From: Candidatus Bathyarchaeia archaeon
Lineage (GTDB): Archaea; Thermoproteota; Bathyarchaeia; Bathyarchaeales; Bathycorpusculaceae
Direction: 5' to 3'
DNA: 11,531 nucleotides
Assembly (NCBI GenBank): GCA_050015395.1
Contig: JBEKBM010000041.1
Location: forward strand, 1-11,531
Both the position numbers and the translations under genes were made by a program. Shown here one piece after another: positions 610 to 6,853 of the stretch. Each line of letters starts with the position of its first letter. Position 1 is the first letter of the stretch. Under the pieces are notes generated by a model. The model was not told where the DNA came from, searched no databases, and worked only from the letters and a program-made list of their open reading frames with translations.

Positions 610-1431
610 CTAAACGTTTACAGGCATTTTTGTTGCTGCCTTAAGCCCAGACGCAGTCGCTTGCAACTCTTTAAGCATAGCATCGATGTTGCCCTGACGC
701 TTTTGGATCAGGTTGATGAAGGCGCTTCCAACGATGACGCCATCTGCTCCTGCCCCAACAATGCGCGCTACATGCTCAGACTTCGAAACGCCAAACCCAA
801 CCGCCAACGGAATCCTCCCAGACGTGAAAGGCAAAACACGCTTGACCAGCTGAATAGTTGAACCCTCAATCGCTGACTGCGCACCTGTAACGCCGAAATG
901 TGAAACAAGATACAGAAAACCTGAAGAACACTCAACAATCCTTGACAATCGCTCGTTAGAAGTTGAGGGTGCTGCAAGGAAAATCGAGTCTATGCCGAAT
1001 TTGTTTGCTGCTTTCTTGTAGTCGCCTGCTTCCTCGACGGGTAAGTCTGGAACTATGACGCCATCAACCAGGCATTCTTTGGCTAACCTGAAAAATCTTT
1101 CCAGCCCCATCCTGAACACTGGATTATAGTAAGTCATTATTACAACTGGCACATCATGCCTTTGCCGTATTTCCTTAGCAACTTCCAGCACCTTAACAGG
1201 CGTTGTTCCAGCAGCTAAAGCGCGTACGCTTGCAGCTTGAATTGTGGGTCCATCAGCAATCGGATCAGAGAACGGCAATCCCAACTCCAGAATGTCTACG
1301 CCGCCTTTGATTAAGGCATCAGCAATTTTCGCTGTCAGTTCTGGTTTTGGGTCTCCAGCCATAATGTAGCCGATAAGCGCCCTGTTTCCATGCGCCTTTG
1401 CCTTTTGGAAGGCTTCGTTTATTGCGTTCAT
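610..1431 (-). CDS. trpA: Tryptophan synthase alpha chain
   Basis: Motifs [52 protein letters not shown] and [12 protein letters not shown] overlap with the trpB stop. Confidence 0.98.
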
Positions 1432-2624
1432 ATTTTCGCCCTTATGTAGTCTGCTACAGTTTCCACGTCTTTGTCTCCCCGTCCCGACACTGTTACGACG
1501 ATTGACTGGGTCTTCTTCATCTGCTTGGCTAACTTCATTGCGTAAGCTACTGCATGCGAGGACTCTAATGCAGGCAGGATTCCTTCCTCTCTGGACAAAG
1601 TGAGAAAAGCATCTACCGCTTCCTTGTCCGTAGCAGAAGTATACTGCGCTCTCTTAAGCGTCTTAAGGAGGGAATGCTCTGGTCCAACGCCAGGATAATC
1701 TAAGCCAGCGGACACGCTGCTTGTGTTCTGTATTTGTCCATTACTATCTTGAAGAACGTAGGTTAACATGCCGTGAAATACGCCTTCTGCTCCTGCGCCA
1801 AGTGATGCGGCATGTTTGCCTGTTTCTAAGCCTTGGCCAGCAGCTTCAACACCGTAAAGCTTCACCGCGTCATCATCTTCGAAGGGGTAGAAGGTGCCCA
1901 TGGCGTTGCTTCCGCCGCCAACACAAGCAACCAGTGCGTCTGGCAGTCGACCTTCTTTTTTGTGGAATTGTTCTTTGAGTTCCTTGCCGATTACGCTTTG
2001 AAAATCTCTAACAATCATAGGGTACGGATGAGGACCCACCACCGAACCGATTAAGTAATATGTGCTCTCGATGTTTGTAACCCAATCCCTGAACGCCTCG
2101 TTTATCGAGTCCTTGAGGGTTTTTGAGCCAACTTCCACAGGATGGACTTGCGCGTTTAAAAGTTTCATCCTAAAAACGTTAAGCCGCTGCCGTTCACAGT
2201 CTTCCGTGCCCATGTAAACCTCAGCTTTTAAACCTAAAGCAGCGCAAGCTATTGCTGTGGCTACGCCGTGTTGACCTGCTCCTGTCTCAGCGATTACACG
2301 CGTCTTACCCATACGCTTAGCCAGAAGCGCTTGGCCGATTGTATTGTTTATTTTGTGTGCTCCACCGTGCGCTAAGTCTTCACGTTTAAGGTAAATCTTG
2401 GCGCCGCCCAGTTTACGGGTCAAGTTCTTAGCGTAATACAATGGTGTTGGTCTTCCAACGAATTCTGAAAGATAATAGTCAAGTTCTTTTTGGAAAGTCG
2501 GGTCTTTTCGGGCTTGCTCGTAGGCGTCTTCCAGCTCCTTAATCGCTGCCATCAGGACTTCTGGAACAAAACGACCGCCATATTTCCCATATTTTCCGTC
2601 AACTGGGTAATTGCTTACTTTCAT
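1428..2624 (-). CDS. trpB: Tryptophan synthase beta chain (TrpB1 type)
   Basis: [24 protein letters not shown] (PLP lysine), [51 protein letters not shown]. Confidence 0.98.
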
Positions 2625-3400
2625 TTTGCATTCACAAACTCCTTAACTTTTTCTTCAATGTTATCGGTTGACATTATGGCTGATCCGATAAGGAAAGCGC
2701 ATGCGCCACTTTCACGGAGAAACCGTATGTCTGCTGGCGTGTTTATTCCGCTTTCACTTACGACCACTTTGCCTTTTGGATTAATTTCGGCAAGAATTTG
2801 TTTTGTCACGTTCAAATTCACCTTTAATGTTTCAAGGTTACGATTATTTATCCCAATCAAATCAGCGCCTGTTTTGATGGCTGAGCGAAACTCCGATTCG
2901 GTGTGGGTTTCAAGCAAAACCTCAAGACCGAACAGATGAGCCCCGTCTATCATTTCGTTAATGCTTTTTTCACAGTATCCTCTGTCAAAAAGCGCTTTAA
3001 TTAGCAAAACGGCGTTAGCTCCTATCTTTGGTGCGGCTTCGATTTGTATTGGGCTTAAGATTATGTCTTTCATGAGGATGGGAAGTTTCACGGCTTCTCG
3101 CGCTTCAGCCAATGCTTCTAGAGAGCCATTGAAGTGTTTTGGCTCAGTTAACACGGATATTGCGGTTGCTCCGCCTTTTGCCATAGCCTTCGCAATCATG
3201 CTTGCTTTAACGTTTTTTCTGATTATCCCAGCTGATGGTGAAGCGGCTTTGATTTCGGTTATGACTGGGGTAGCTTTGCTTTCTAAAATTGCCTTCCTTA
3301 AACTAATGCGAACCCTTTCTGTCGGCTTTAACGTTTCATAGTATCCGCTATCAATTGTTTCTTTAGCATCACGCGCCAGCACATCAAGGAAATCACTCAT
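2621..3400 (-). CDS. trpC: Indole-3-glycerol phosphate synthase (monofunctional, no TrpF fusion)
   Basis: [43 protein letters not shown]; 259 aa. Confidence 0.96.
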
Positions 3401-4454
3401 ACTTCGCTTTCAACTCCTCAAGTTTTGACAGGCTGCCGCCTGAAGCTTTCACTAAAGCCTTAAGCTTGGCGTAGGCAGCTCCGCTTTCGATTGATTTGCG
3501 AGCTATTTCCATGCCGCCTTCGAAGTCTTCTGCTTCCCCGCCAACAATGATTCCTGCCGCACTGTTGACAAGCACAAACTCCGCTTTGGGGTCATCTAAG
3601 GTGCAGTTGCCGCTGAGAATTTTGAATAAAGTTTCAGCGCTTTCCTCAAGCGTTTCCACTTTCAAATCGGCGATGCTTGCCTTTTCTATTCCGAAATCGC
3701 TTGGAGAAGCCTCTCGTTCTGTTACTTTGCCTTTCTTTAACCATGCAATAGCCGTCTTTCCAACCGTTGACACTTCATCTAAGCCATCTAATCCATGAAC
3801 AACCATCGCTTCCTCGCAACCCAGCCGCTTCAACGCATAAGCCAATGGGGCAGTCAGTTTGGGGTCATATACGCCGAGCAGTTGGGCGTTAGCGCATGCT
3901 GGATTAGTTAGCGGTCCGAGGAGGTTGAATACTGTGCGAATGCCAATTTCCCGTCTTGGCTCAGCAGCATACTTCATAGCGGGATTGAAAGCTGGAGCAA
4001 ACATGAAGCCTATCCCAACGTTTTCTATTATGCCTTCAACTGCTTCGGGCTCCAAGTACAGGTTAAGACCGAGCTTTTCCAGCACGTCGGCGCTGCCGCT
4101 TTTGCTGGTTACAGCCCTGTTTCCATGCTTAGCAACCGCAACGCCAGCTCCTGCAATGACGAAGGCTGCTGCTGTGCTCACGTTGAAGGTTTTTATTTTG
4201 TCTCCGCCTGTCCCGCAGGTATCCACTAGGCGGCTATGCACACGGGGATGTATTTGGCTGCTCTGCTCACGCATAACAGAGGCAAAGGCGATGAGTTCCT
4301 CAACAGCTTCACCCTTCATTCGCAAGGCTGTTAGAAAAGCAGCAGTTTGTGAGCTTGTCGCTTTCCCCGACATGACTTCTCGCATTATCGCTCCTGACTC
4401 GTCGCTTGTTAAGCTGTAGCCTTCGATGAGTTTCTGTATGCCTTCCCTAATCAC
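3393..4454 (-). CDS. trpD: Anthranilate phosphoribosyltransferase
   Basis: DTCGTGGD, TFNVST, VAKHGNRAVTSKSGSADVLE, RTVFNLLGPLTNP, GLDEVS. GTG start overlaps the trpG stop. Confidence 0.98.
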   Translation of the reverse strand: MIREGIQKLIEGYSLTSDESGAIMREVMSGKATSSQTAAFLTALRMKGEAVEELIAFASVMREQSSQIHPRVHSRLVDTCGTGGDKIKTFNVSTAAAFVIAGAGVAVAKHGNRAVTSKSGSADVLEKLGLNLYLEPEAVEGIIENVGIGFMFAPAFNPAMKYAAEPRREIGIRTVFNLLGPLTNPACANAQLLGVYDPKLTAPLAYALKRLGCEEAMVVHGLDGLDEVSTVGKTAIAWLKKGKVTEREASPSDFGIEKASIADLKVETLEESAETLFKILSGNCTLDDPKAEFVLVNSAAGIIVGGEAEDFEGGMEIARKSIESGAAYAKLKALVKASGGSLSKLEELKAKYE

Positions 4455-5041
4455 AGCCGTCGCCCGCCATCCAAAAAGTTTTTAATTATAACTTTCCCAT
4501 CCTCGCAGAGAATCGATTCGGGATGAAATTGCACGCCGTCAATCGGGTACTTAACATGCCGAACACCCATGATTTCACCGTCGTCAACGCATTCTGCGGT
4601 AATTTCTAAGCATGAAGGAATAGAGCATCGCTCGCCAGCAAGTGAGTGATATCTCGTTGCCGTGAATGGGTTGCGTACACCCTTGAAGATACCTTTTTGG
4701 TCATGTTTTATGGTGCAGGTTTTGCCGTGCATTAGCCTTTTTGCGTGGATGATTTTTCCGCCATAGACGCTGATTATTCCTTGGTGACCTAAGCAGACGC
4801 CTAAAGTTGGAATTGTACGACTCATAGTTTGCAGAATTTCTGTGCAAACGCCAAAATACCTAACATCCTCAGGCGTGCCTGGACCTGGCGAAATCACAAT
4901 TCTGTCAGGTTTAAGCTTGGTTAACTGTTCTAGGGTAACTTTGTTGTTTCTGTAAACGATGGTTTCTGCGCCCTGTTCGCCTATGTACTGGACAAGGTTG
5001 TAAACGAACGAATCGTAATTATCGATTACTACTACCTTCAT
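4451..5041 (-). CDS. trpG: Anthranilate synthase component II (class I glutamine amidotransferase)
   Basis: IDNYDSFVYNL, ISPGPG, LGVCLGHQ, RYHSL, GVQFHPES (Cys-His-Glu triad). Confidence 0.97.
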   Translation of the reverse strand: MKVVVIDNYDSFVYNLVQYIGEQGAETIVYRNNKVTLEQLTKLKPDRIVISPGPGTPEDVRYFGVCTEILQTMSRTIPTLGVCLGHQGIISVYGGKIIHAKRLMHGKTCTIKHDQKGIFKGVRNPFTATRYHSLAGERCSIPSCLEITAECVDDGEIMGVRHVKYPIDGVQFHPESILCEDGKVIIKNFLDGGRRL

Positions 5042-6463
5042 GCTTTTGCGCCTCCAGCCCGCTCAAGCGCCTGCATCAGCGCTTTTGCCTTGTCGTCTGT
5101 TTCGAACCATTCTCTTTCTGGAACTGAATCAGCTACGATTCCGGCGCCAGCTTGAATGTACGCTTTGTTCTTGTCGGCGAAGAGGGTGCGGATGGTTATG
5201 GCAAAGTCGGCATTGCCATTGTATGAAAAGTAGCCTACTGCACCAGCGTAAGGTCCACGCCTTGCTGGTTCAAGTTCGTCAATGATTTCCATGGCTCGCA
5301 CTTTTGGTGCTCCAGAAACCGTGCCAGCTGGAAAAACAGCCCGCAACGCGTCATAGCTTTGAAGGTTTTCTTTAAGTTCACCTACCACTTGCGAAACAAT
5401 ATGTTGTACGTGGCTGTACCGATGGACTTTCATGAATTCAGGCACATGAACGCTACCGTACTTGGAGATTCTGCCAATATCATTACGTGCTAAATCGACA
5501 AGCATCACGTGTTCAGCACGTTCTTTTGGGTCGGCAAGCAATTCGCAGGCTAACTTGCGGTTTTCACCAGGGTCTTCAGCAACTGGTCTTGTTCCTGCAA
5601 TCGGGAAGGTTTCCACGGTTCTGTTTTCAACTCGGACGAGCATTTCGGGGCTGGAACCAACGATTTGCCGATCGCCTGACTTGTAAAAGTACATGTAGGG
5701 TGAAGGATTAATGGTGCGAAGAGACTGATAAAACGGAATCAGGTCACCTTTTATTTGGAATTGGTAGCGTTTGGACAGGACAACTTGGAAAATGTCTCCT
5801 GCAGTCACGTATTCTTTTGCTTTTTCTACCGCTTTTTCATAGTTTTCTTTTTTAGTGCTTACTTTAGGTTGAGTGTAAGATAATTCTTCAGAAGTGATGG
5901 GTTGCTTGAGTAGGTTTTCAACTTCGGGTAGACGGTTCTCGCTTCGGTAATAGTAGAATGCTTGTCGCTGTATATGGTTGAAGATGAATCCGTCGTCAAA
6001 TATGCCCATTTCCAATTCAGGAAAATTCAGGTCAAATCGGGACTTTTCTGGCAGTTTTTCCCAGTAACGTACCGCATCATAAGAGATGTAGCCGACTGCT
6101 CCGCCAATGAATCTGAATTCGCTGTTTGAGACTGCATCGTCTTTGAGGAGTTTTTCTATGAGTTGCAGTGGGTCGCTTGTTTTCTGTGTGGTTGTTTCGC
6201 CGGTTCTTTCGTTTTTGATTTGGGCTTTTTTGTTTTTTGTTTGGAGGGTTATTTTTGGGTCGAATCCGATGAATGAGTATTGTGCGAGTTTTTTTGGTCC
6301 TTCGATTGATTCGAGAAGGTAGGTTGTTTTGTATTGTTTTTGGAGTTTTGAGAATATTTCGAGGGGTTGTTGAGTGATCTGGATTTTTTTGATTTTTAGG
6401 GGGTTAGCTGGTTTGGTTTCGGTTGTTGTCTGTGTGCCAAAGGTGATTCCCCATTTTGTTCAT
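5038..6463 (-). CDS. trpE: Anthranilate synthase component I; the full-length product appears to need a +1 frameshift near 6442-6439 (about 474 aa from ATG 6463)
   Basis: The C-terminal part has GDIFQVVLS, NPSPYM, GSSPE, PIAGTRP, EHVMLVDLARND, PAGTVSGAPK and AGAGIVADS. Manual translation shows the same frame open from 6015 up to 6459 (TGA at 6462-6460), encoding ...PLEIFSKLQKQYKTTYLLESIEGPKKLAQYSFIGFDP...FRFIGGAVGYISYDAVRYWE..., but with no in-frame ATG/GTG/TTG. The ORF-track start at 6015 is internal. Gene identity is near certain; the start and frameshift are inferred. Confidence 0.9.
6404..6463 (-). CDS. 19-aa leader ORF MNKMGNHLWHTDNNRNQTS, the zero-frame product at the trpE start, with a single Trp codon
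   Basis: ATG AAC AAA ATG GGG AAT CAC CTT TGG CAC ACA GAC AAC AAC CGA AAC CAA ACC AGC TAA, preceded by TAAGGAAGC. A second in-frame ATG lies at 6454. Confidence 0.65.
   Translation of the reverse strand: MNKMGNHLWHTDNNRNQTS
6436..6442 (-). other. Candidate programmed +1 ribosomal frameshift site CUU-UGG-C
   Basis: P-site CUU can re-pair on the overlapping UUU (6441-6439), which is in the trpE frame. The zero-frame A-site codon is UGG (Trp). Confidence 0.65.
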
Positions 6464-6483
6464 GCTTCCTTATGGTTCAAAAA

Positions 6484-6529
6484 TATACGCCAATGTATTA
6501 TTTAAGGCTTACCAGTACAAAAATGTACT
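6484..6529 (-). promoter_or_regulatory. Putative trp operon promoter (TATA CTTAAATA, 6506-6499) flanked by two palindromic operator-like sites
   Basis: A perfect inverted repeat AGTACA-AAAA-TGTACT (6514-6529) and an imperfect copy TATACG-CCAA-TGTATT (6484-6499) lie 30 bp apart on either side of the TATA-like box, about 36 nt upstream of ATG 6463. Confidence 0.55.
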
Positions 6530-6853
6530 CTAAGGCTTGAGCACAACACTCATCCAATCCAGATAAGCCTTCGACGCATCAACAATCGGAAGCGCAAGAA
6601 CCTCCGGAACCTCATAACTATGCAAGCTCTTCACACGCTCAGCAACTTGCGAAAACAAGTCCATGCGTGATTTCATAACGATTAAGCACTCCTCAGCCTT
6701 CTCAATTTTGCCAGACCAATGAAAAAGTGACGTGACTGGACTAACGATGTTTCCGCAAGCAATCAAACGCTCATTCAAAAGCAATTGCATTATTTTTTCT
6801 GCTTCCTGCTTATCTTTCGCAGTAACTAATATGATAATGTAATTGTGGTTCAA
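6530..6853 (-). CDS. cutA: Divalent-cation tolerance protein CutA
   Basis: 107 aa; LIACGNI, SLFHWSGKIE..EE, LHSYEVPEV, YLDW. Confidence 0.95.
   Translation of the reverse strand: MNHNYIIILVTAKDKQEAEKIMQLLLNERLIACGNIVSPVTSLFHWSGKIEKAEECLIVMKSRMDLFSQVAERVKSLHSYEVPEVLALPIVDASKAYLDWMSVVLKP

Follow-up and report, generated by a model that had tools for sequence, protein, structure and literature searches.

The trp operon on the stretch of DNA analysed here (the window: 11,531 nucleotides (nt) of contig JBEKBM010000041.1, from a metagenome-assembled genome (MAG) of an uncultured Bathyarchaeia archaeon from peat) begins with a trpE gene that has no canonical start codon anywhere near the beginning of its reading frame. 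A short leader open reading frame (ORF), which is preceded by a Shine-Dalgarno (SD) sequence and overlaps trpE one base out of frame, reads ATG GGG AAT CAC CTT TGG C, and the same arrangement, a start codon followed by nine bases and then NTT-TGG, recurs in 241 of 264 distinct trpE 5' regions, with trpE almost always in the +1 frame. This layout very probably marks a real, conserved and obligatory +1 frameshift site ahead of trpE. That the site also senses tryptophan is probable. A little less firmly, it seems likely that an ancient tryptophan-sensing +1 frameshift, built on hardware like that of prfB, controls anthranilate synthase across much of the Thermoproteota, including the Bathyarchaeia, the ammonia-oxidising Nitrososphaeria and further families.

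A trpE gene without a start codon

On the minus strand, the trpE frame is open from 6459 to 5038 (473 codons, P0001), and the first ATG, GTG or TTG in it is a TTG at 6015, which leaves 148 codons without a canonical start. The N-terminal domain is nonetheless intact, and both domains of TrpE are complete by Pfam: Anth_synt_I_N (PF04715, 1.1e-34, profile positions 4-139 of 140) and Chorismate_bind (PF00425, 1.1e-99, positions 2-257 of 257). Among the 18 ORFs of at least 200 codons in the source MAG (G000) that have at least 60 start-less 5' codons, trpE ranks third. The ATGs at 6463 and 6454 are both one frame off and read through CAC CTT TGG CAC to a TAA at 6406-6404. All of this agrees with the original prediction, made from the sequence of the window, in which two figures have to be changed. 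The conserved, SD-spaced start is ATG 6454, not ATG 6463, so the leader has 16 codons instead of 19, and the shifted product would comprise 5 + 466 = 471 residues instead of about 474. (ATG 6463 shares the frame of ATG 6454 but stands only 1 nt from the SD sequence, and its frame varies among relatives.) The motif ATGRGKN7TTTGG is expected 0.03 times in the window and was observed twice; the second match, at 3845-3862 on the plus strand, was considered as a copy of the cassette and rejected as a chance match, its +1 frame closing after 17 codons.

Conservation of the leader cassette

How widely is this arrangement kept? Matches to trpE were collected from near relatives (28 of 41 genomes), the order (214 of 401), a sample of genome contigs (67 loci), the class (142 of 301, with 40 regions fetched), the phylum (137 of 251, with 20 regions fetched) and one further family (58 of 61; 30 loci, one of which, from an unpublished genome, was left out). 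After removal of identical copies, the comparison set comprised 264 distinct 5' regions that extend 170 nt or more upstream from the TrpE anchor, two of them bacterial. The near relatives are uncultured Candidatus Bathyarchaeia or Bathyarchaeota from peat, bog, fen and soil and include the complete genome of Ca. Bathyarchaeum tardum M17C-01.

A frame-agnostic search for a start codon, nine bases and NTT-TGG gave 244 matches in 241 of these regions, and for 242 of the 244 trpE lies in the +1 frame. In 240 of the 241 regions, that frame contains no stop between the site and the conserved domain. (The exception, L298, was matched by chance at an upstream position, and its real site is a variant.) The 0 frame, on the other hand, is closed before the conserved TrpE domain in 236 regions and the third frame in 238. 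The start codon always stands exactly four codons before the NTT and is ATG in 229 regions, GTG in nine and TTG in three, while codon 5 is CTT in 130, GTT in 57, ATT in 45 and TTT in nine. The base after TGG is C in 161 regions, A in 47, G in 19 and T in 14. Of the columns between start and slippery codon, nt 4 is a purine in all 241 regions, nt 5 is G in 240, nt 8 is A in 214 and nt 9 is T in 202. Conservation is confined to nt 1-19, the flanks staying below 0.6 bits, and the leader as a whole runs to anything from 6 to 51 codons. An out-of-frame start and an NTT-TGG in the +1 relationship are thus kept while the flanks diverge, which was the comparison that the original prediction had proposed.

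The pattern is spread over organisms whose TrpE proteins share as little as about 30-50% identity over the anchor. It was found in 169 of the 181 regions from the order level and the genome contigs, in 35 of 40 from other orders of the class and in 8 of 20 from other classes, to which five variants with longer leaders may be added. By hand mapping of the loci to GTDB family labels, it occurs in at least 22 families and at least three classes. All 29 regions of family f39 carry it; archaeal amoA was found in the three genomes of this family that were tested, which identifies its members as ammonia oxidisers, presumably with Nitrosopumilus-type strains among them. In that family, the leader ATG comes 21-22 nt after TTTAAATA (three sequences, counted by hand), and given the usual distance from TATA box to start in archaea, this spacing suggests a leaderless trpE mRNA that begins at the leader AUG itself. 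If so, the whole switch would lie within the first 19 nt of the transcript.

Within a genome, the cassette appears to be unique to trpE: no second copy was found in the source MAG or in five complete genomes, and only trpE has such a leader. A loose form of the pattern (leader no longer than 60 codons, +1 ORF no shorter than 100) matches 25 times in the source MAG, trpE included, and the other matches, judged by eye and not one by one, are mostly without SD context and probably internal to genes. A candidate second cassette in another genome (G040:139540) proved to be the SD sequence and TTG start of an Alba-like gene.

Where the proposed shift must lie

The position of the shift can be read from three kinds of natural variant. 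On the upstream side, a stop codon in the +1 frame stands directly before the TTT in 10 loci (for example, ATG GGT GAC TTA GTT TGG in family f11, and the variants of family f60) and three codons before it in 70. It follows that a ribosome arriving at the NTT cannot yet have left the 0 frame. On the downstream side, a 0-frame stop follows one codon after TGG in L081, L109, L110, L113 and L140, and directly after it in L304. Finally, in L013 (ATG AGG AAC CAC CTT GAC) and L170 (CTT TGC AGC), the first five codons of the leader are fused in frame to trpE, and the point of fusion is exactly the proposed shift site; L155 and L291 are further in-frame relatives of shifted genes, and in-frame versions also occur in families f24, f31 and f43. 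Taken together, the +1 stops before, the 0-frame stops after and the in-frame fusions confine the shift to NUU-UGG, where the original prediction had placed it. That prediction had also named close relatives with an in-frame start and no CTT-TGG as a case that would speak against it. Such relatives do occur, but they are rare, and the recent ones (L013 and L170) are fused at the shift site, which supports the model instead.

In the window, as at all loci that need the shift except one, the codon in the A site is not a stop but TGG. The exception, L146, has a stop in place of UGG (ATG GGT GAT CCA CTT TAG C), and its CTT TAG C is exactly the prfB form. (L146 comes from a genome, G095, with two trpE copies; in the other copy, L155, the ATG is in frame and of the ordinary kind, and neither the SD-like nor the slippery bases are retained.) A different variant is L301, from genome G611 of family f51, where a longer leader with two tryptophan codons (M P R L W G M C L W Q stop) is followed within a few codons by an in-frame ATG at the normal N-terminus of TrpE; at this locus, the mechanism may be a separate upstream ORF instead of a frameshift.

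Other placements of the shift were considered. A shift right at the start codon, with ATG-R read as four bases, was suggested by the synonymous-looking variation of GGA/GGG/GGT and ATC/ATT/ATA in the trpE frame, but it is ruled out by the +1 stops between start and TTT in family f11 and others, and the apparent synonymous pattern is due to complementarity to the anti-SD sequence. The alternation of TGG and TGA at leader nt 2-4, in the +1 frame, might be taken for TGA read as tryptophan; this idea was rejected, there being no in-frame start upstream and TAG and TAA occurring at the same place. A shift one codon earlier in the manner of Ty3, with codon 4 in the P site and Phe-tRNA entering on UUU out of frame, is unlikely, since codon 4 varies among about 20 codons, NUU is not slow and the F-G residues are dispensable in the in-frame variants. 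Nor would a shift with tRNA-Trp in the P site be expected, as its CCA anticodon would re-pair poorly on GGC.

Predicted pairing with 16S rRNA and the likeness to prfB

The 3' end of the 16S rRNA of the source MAG, read from contig C30, is GGATCACCTCCT. When duplex energies between the 16S 3' tail and 9-nt windows were calculated along the 241 leaders, the true SD sequence appeared as a peak at about -15 with a mean of -5.3 kcal/mol, and a second, stronger peak was found inside the leader, at nt 3-11, with a mean of -7.6 kcal/mol. The same stretch of leader positions in 622 control SD-led ATG ORFs of the source MAG has a mean of -2.07 (standard deviation 2.0), and only 1.6% of the controls are at or below -7. 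Pairing extends to nt 10 in 165 of the 241 leaders, which leaves a 2-nt spacer before NUU, while 23 leaders have a 3-nt spacer. This complementarity explains both the conserved G-RGG-NAU-C of the leader and the misleading G-I-x-F-G pattern of the +1 frame.

The layout agrees with that of bacterial prfB, in which an SD-like element is followed by 2-3 nt, CUU-U, a slow codon and C, as in AGGGGG-UAU-CUU-UGA-C (PMC12421855). The shared features are an internal SD-like element complementary to the 16S 3' tail and ending 2-3 nt before the slippery codon, a P-site CUU (or UUU) followed by U that allows re-pairing in the +1 frame, a slow A-site codon mostly followed by C, a position early in the ORF, a product that relieves the pause causing the shift, and the existence of lineages in which the gene is in frame (PMC12421855). 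The original prediction had invoked prfB for the geometry of the slippery codon and the slow codon after it, and the element complementary to the anti-SD sequence brings the two systems closer still.

There are also clear differences. The A-site codon of the trpE cassette is the sense codon UGG, one base away from the stop UGA; the P-site codon may be any NUU; and the SD-like element, which shares bases with the start codon, forms its duplex chiefly with the GAUCACC portion of the tail. The gene concerned is trpE instead of the one for release factor 2, the hosts are archaea, and what would be sensed is Trp-tRNA rather than release factor. The trpE shift would fall at codon 5, whereas the prfB shift of E. 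coli falls at codon 25. In design at least, the prfB mechanism would be at work here with a sense codon.

The tRNA genes found in the source MAG include Leu-GAG, Ile-GAU, Val-GAC and Phe-GAA as well as two copies of Gly-GCC, and all NUU codons are decoded by GAN anticodons. After a +1 slip, anticodon positions 34 and 35 would still pair with UU, and for leucine, position 36 could form a G-U pair.

A model for tryptophan sensing at trpE

The anatomy suggests the following course of events. Ribosomes would initiate at the SD-led ATG 6454 and read MGNHL, which brings peptidyl-tRNA-Leu onto CUU (6442-6440) in the P site and UGG into the A site. As long as Trp-tRNA is plentiful, UGG would be decoded and translation would terminate 10 codons later at the TAA, giving a 16-residue peptide and no TrpE; in most genomes, the ribosome in tryptophan-replete cells would end after a peptide of 7-34 residues. 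If Trp-tRNA is scarce, the A site would stay empty. Bases 3-10 of the leader would be paired with the 16S 3' tail, with 2 nt left between this duplex and the P-site codon, and a duplex so close behind the P site would favour forward movement. The P-site tRNA, with its GAN anticodon, would slip from NUU to UUU, Gly-tRNA would read GGC (GGN in general), and the 471-residue TrpE would be made. More tryptophan would then be synthesised, closing the feedback loop. The sequences establish the anatomy of the site, its conservation, the place where a shift would have to fall and the complementarity to rRNA; the shift itself, its efficiency and its response to tryptophan are inferred from them.

Several points weigh against this model or qualify its reach. 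The related genomes in the comparison set are not independent samples. The proposed dependence on tryptophan is drawn from the identity of one codon, UGG, and the function of the gene, and there is a single tryptophan codon in the leader, compared with the tandem codons of bacterial leaders. If the frame shifts as early as codon 5, the nascent chain is still very short and might be lost by drop-off. In 92 of the 241 loci, some canonical in-frame start lies between the upstream +1-frame stop and the TTT, including a GTG three codons before the TTT in 34 loci and an ATG or GTG one codon before it in 22. In these lineages, the sequence does not strictly require the shift. The ammonia oxidisers, which have the GTG, are among them, and the need for a shift is accordingly less certain in that family. 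Finally, no tRNA-Trp was detected in the source MAG by ARAGORN, with or without the intron search, although this result is uninformative.

Alternative explanations

Could the site shift ribosomes without regard to tryptophan? The shift may be real and obligatory but constitutive, setting a fixed low yield of TrpE per mRNA or serving some other purpose, with UGG merely a slow codon and any control by tryptophan exerted on transcription through an inverted repeat beside the TATA box. All of the structural evidence for a shift fits this equally well, the repeat is conserved and does adjoin the TATA box, and the stop codon that replaces UGG in L146 indicates that the tryptophan codon is not indispensable for a working site. 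However, UGG is kept at every other locus that requires the shift, in at least three classes, while the P-site codon varies among the four NUU codons and codon 4 among about 20; if slowness were all that mattered, one would expect to see this codon replaced at times by rare codons or stops. The restriction of the cassette to the gene for the committed step of tryptophan synthesis likewise counts against a constitutive shift, which is considered unlikely. Alternatively, there may be no frameshift at all. The short ORF would then be a tryptophan-containing upstream ORF that modulates the initiation of TrpE by occupying the same ribosome-binding site, and TrpE would be started in its own frame by reinitiation or at a near-cognate codon (AUC 6447 here; AUH, GUG or AUG in relatives). 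The +1 codons under the leader do often read G-I/V-x-F-G, with ATC, ATT or ATA in second place, but this apparent G-I conservation is explained by the complementarity of GGNGAUC to the 16S tail. Canonical in-frame starts do exist, such as the GTG of the ammonia oxidisers, the ATG or GTG directly before TTT in 22 loci and the in-frame ATG of L301, yet they are scattered over positions that show no conservation. Candidate ACG and ATA starts elsewhere in the source MAG, and database records that begin the TrpE of some relatives at ATC or ATA, add to the case for a non-canonical start and count against an obligatory shift. Separate initiation would, however, leave the invariant TTT-GG and the fixed four-codon spacing without a role; it does not account for the natural fusions that join the leader frame to trpE; and it is contradicted by the +1 stops directly before TTT or three codons before it, which are followed by no in-frame start throughout the N-terminal domain. 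A start at AUC 6447 is possible, by sequence, for this one genome; as a general explanation, a near-cognate in-frame start is excluded by the stops in relatives, and a separate upstream ORF is, overall, rather improbable.

There is also the question of whether the frame is broken by a one-base sequencing or assembly error in a homopolymer, or whether trpE is a decaying pseudogene. The region does contain short homopolymers (AAAA, GGGG and TTT), all of the sources are MAGs, some of them from long reads, and a few records (L170, P0005) are in frame by a one-base difference. Against this stand the same out-of-frame layout in 241 distinct loci from many studies and assemblers, an intact operon, and a TrpE frame that is intact and conserved with both Pfam domains complete. 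Moreover, two metagenome runs on peat, independent of each other, yielded DNA contigs (X4 record 12 and X10 record 4) that span 6343-6650 with no differences and no gaps, so that the indel for which the original prediction had advised a check is absent at the level of contigs, as distinct from raw reads. Artefact or decay is accordingly a very remote prospect. Transcriptional slippage was also discarded, the run of three Ts presumably being too short; a contig from an RNA library of a relative carries the motif unchanged, which is weak evidence in the same direction. For the source organism itself, the metatranscriptome contigs X16 and X17 do not span the site. Might the leader act instead by attenuation, as in bacteria? 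No terminator-like site was found between leader and trpE, the only match being at the end of cutA (6545-6524), and the fold of 6485-6360 is no better than that of shuffled sequences (z = +0.44). The overlap of the leader with trpE leaves no room for a terminator and antiterminator. These results agree with the original proposal of control by recoding rather than by a hairpin.

In the source MAG, four long ORFs without a canonical start have a good SD sequence that is followed 7-9 nt later by ACG or ATA (Table 1). The ACG pair comprises a ribosomal protein uS4-like gene, with GDPKK right after the ACG, and a gene for a membrane protein with a long region rich in T, P, Q and N; the ATA pair comprises a purF-like amidotransferase gene, with G-C-G-I-F-G after the ATA, and a gene for another membrane protein. 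The source lineage may use ACG and AUA as start codons. The ENA protein P0005 (472 residues) is another special case, in which 14 codons of the leader frame (MGNRLWHTNNNRNQ) lead straight on, in frame, into TrpE. The cause must be a natural one-base change at some point further downstream or else a mistake of assembly within the A/C-rich tract described below.

Operon and promoter context

According to the ORF list and Pfam, the operon lies on the minus strand downstream of cutA and has the gene order trpE-G-D-C-B-A. The coordinates of its features, and those of the four ORFs just mentioned, are collected in Table 1.

Table 1. Features of the trp locus in the window, with four further ORFs of the source MAG
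Feature	Position	Strand	Remarks
Leader start codon ATG, 0 frame	6452..6454	-	Conserved position and SD spacing
Internal SD-like element GGGGAATC, leader nt 3-10	6445..6452	-	Complementary to 16S rRNA 3' tail GAUCACCUCC; proposed frameshift stimulator
Slippery run CTT-T	6439..6442	-	P-site codon CUU (Leu); peptidyl-tRNA could re-pair with UUU in the +1 frame
0-frame A-site codon TGG	6437..6439	-	Sole Trp codon of the leader; proposed sensor codon
+1-frame A-site codon GGC (Gly)	6436..6438	-	First trpE-frame codon after the proposed shift
0-frame stop TAA	6404..6406	-	Ends the 16-codon leader peptide MGNHLWHTDNNRNQTS
trpE body, +1 frame, anthranilate synthase component I	5038..6438	-	466 sense codons and TGA (5040-5038); Pfam
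A/C-rich, G/T-poor 5' part of trpE	6100..6436	-	A or C at 88-97% of third positions over the first 115 codons; about 60% further on
SD sequence AGGAAG	6465..6470	-	10 nt upstream of ATG 6454
TATA-box-like TTAAATA of the trp operon	6499..6505	-	aagccTTAAATA conserved in relatives; putative promoter function
Inverted repeat GTACA-TTTT-TGTAC	6515..6528	-	Just upstream of TATA box; overlaps cutA stop codon
trpG, trpD, trpC, trpB, trpA	610..5041	-	Downstream of trpE; each overlaps the preceding gene by 4-8 nt; ORF list and Pfam
SD-led ORFs with candidate ACG or ATA starts	C5:82101-82706 (+), C7:45046-46335 (-), C1:171560-173089 (-), C2:17008-17853 (+)		Contigs of the source MAG (G000)

The start of trpG overlaps the trpE stop as ATGA, and trpG has a strong SD sequence of its own, GGAGG, 9 nt upstream and inside the end of trpE (5038-5060, minus strand). 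With its own SD sequence, trpG may escape the switch, which may thus act mainly on TrpE, the committed step; a coupling of the switch to the overlapping downstream genes is possible.

Upstream, the inverted repeat is a candidate operator for a transcriptional regulator of the operon, and as such would belong to the promoter context and be separate from the frameshift cassette. A TGTACA...TGTACA is found at the same upstream position in relatives across the class, and the repeat resembles the TRP boxes bound by TrpY in Methanothermobacter. Where cutA ends, immediately before the trp promoter, there is a terminator-like hairpin with a T run after it (6524-6545, minus strand), and its stem overlaps the repeat.

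The first 340 nt or so of trpE after the shift site are unusual in composition, with an A+C fraction of 0.77 compared with a control mean of 0.52 (standard deviation 0.056); none of 305 control genes of the genome reaches 0.75. Such a composition might prevent structure or SD-like sequences from arising in the mRNA. The tract was considered as a universal part of the device and rejected, since the bias is strong only in close relatives (mean 0.70-0.79), while distant carriers of the cassette have 0.52.

The conserved leader also bears on annotation. Database N-termini of TrpE in relatives (P0002-P0121) are inconsistent, and none reflects the conserved out-of-frame start: some are called at upstream in-frame ATGs between TATA box and SD sequence (MLLNH...), some take ATA or ATC as Met (MKWGIAFG, MAFG, MFSKLQ), and some are truncated. 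These N-termini are probably wrong, in hundreds of genomes.

Relation to known systems and significance

The trpE cassette combines features that are known from separate systems. Like bacterial trpL attenuation, it has a short leader ORF with a tryptophan codon that would be translated ahead of trpE, the speed of the ribosome at UGG reporting the level of charged tRNA-Trp. Unlike trpL, it has one tryptophan codon and no terminator or antiterminator hairpin, its leader overlaps trpE out of frame, and its output would be a change of reading frame instead of a change in transcription. In yeast Ty1, a slippery CUU is followed by a rare codon (CUU-AGG-C). Antizyme is a +1 programmed ribosomal frameshift (PRF) that serves as a sensor of polyamines (PMC8211752). 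The cassette would resemble these two as a +1 frameshift of the sensor type, in which a slippery codon in the P site is followed by a slow one in the A site; both, however, are eukaryotic, and their signal is a polyamine or a rare tRNA and not the amino acid of the pathway itself. A further parallel is hungry-codon frameshifting, in which a vacant A site at a codon for the limiting aminoacyl-tRNA lets a P-site tRNA on a slippery codon shift. Such starvation-induced shifting was studied in E. coli (Gallant and Lindsley, cited in PMC8211752 and PMC5009743), and its role under natural conditions has been called unclear (Atkins et al. 2016, PMC5009743). The trpE cassette, by contrast, would be an evolved and conserved switch in the very operon that makes the limiting amino acid.

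In archaea, the transcription factors TrpY, which responds to tryptophan, and Tar, which responds to aromatic amino acids, control trp operons; knowledge of archaeal trp regulation hardly extends beyond TrpY, homologues of TrpY or Tar are all but absent from the Crenarchaeota, and a third mechanism has been suggested (PMC6737238). The trpE cassette differs from both factors in that it would act in translation, and it lies in that phylum as now defined. As for recoding in archaeal cells, the available text of a 2021 review gives one demonstrated case, the -1 PRF in fucA1, and a suggested frameshift in Mg-chelatase, while its sole +1 case comes from a haloarchaeal virus (PMC8211752). The words tryptophan, trpE and anthranilate do not occur in the available text of that review, nor do trpE and anthranilate in that of Atkins et al. 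2016 (PMC5009743) or in the main text of the GeneTack survey (PMC3711429), whose supplementary cluster lists lay outside the search. A full-text literature search likewise returned no paper that links trpE or anthranilate synthase to frameshifting. Within this scope, the original statement that such control is not known to have been described for a trp operon still stands. What is proposed is a variation on a known theme, a sensor frameshift of the prfB type that uses a sense codon as its sensor and belongs to an archaeal operon for amino-acid biosynthesis.

What would such a switch mean? If the model is true, this would be the first amino-acid biosynthetic pathway known to be under feedback control by recoding and the first +1 programmed frameshift in an archaeal cellular gene, and the prfB design would have arisen, or been kept, in both prokaryotic domains, here with a sense codon as the sensor. 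It would add a principle to the ways in which charged tRNA is sensed, with the outcome read as a change of frame, compared with the termination of transcription (attenuation and T-box) or the binding of a repressor. The sense-codon version makes the role of A-site vacancy directly testable, and the carriers of the cassette include cultured ammonia oxidisers and the Ca. Bathyarchaeum tardum enrichment. For the Thermoproteota themselves, it would explain how tryptophan synthesis is controlled in a phylum that is mostly without TrpY and Tar homologues (PMC6737238).

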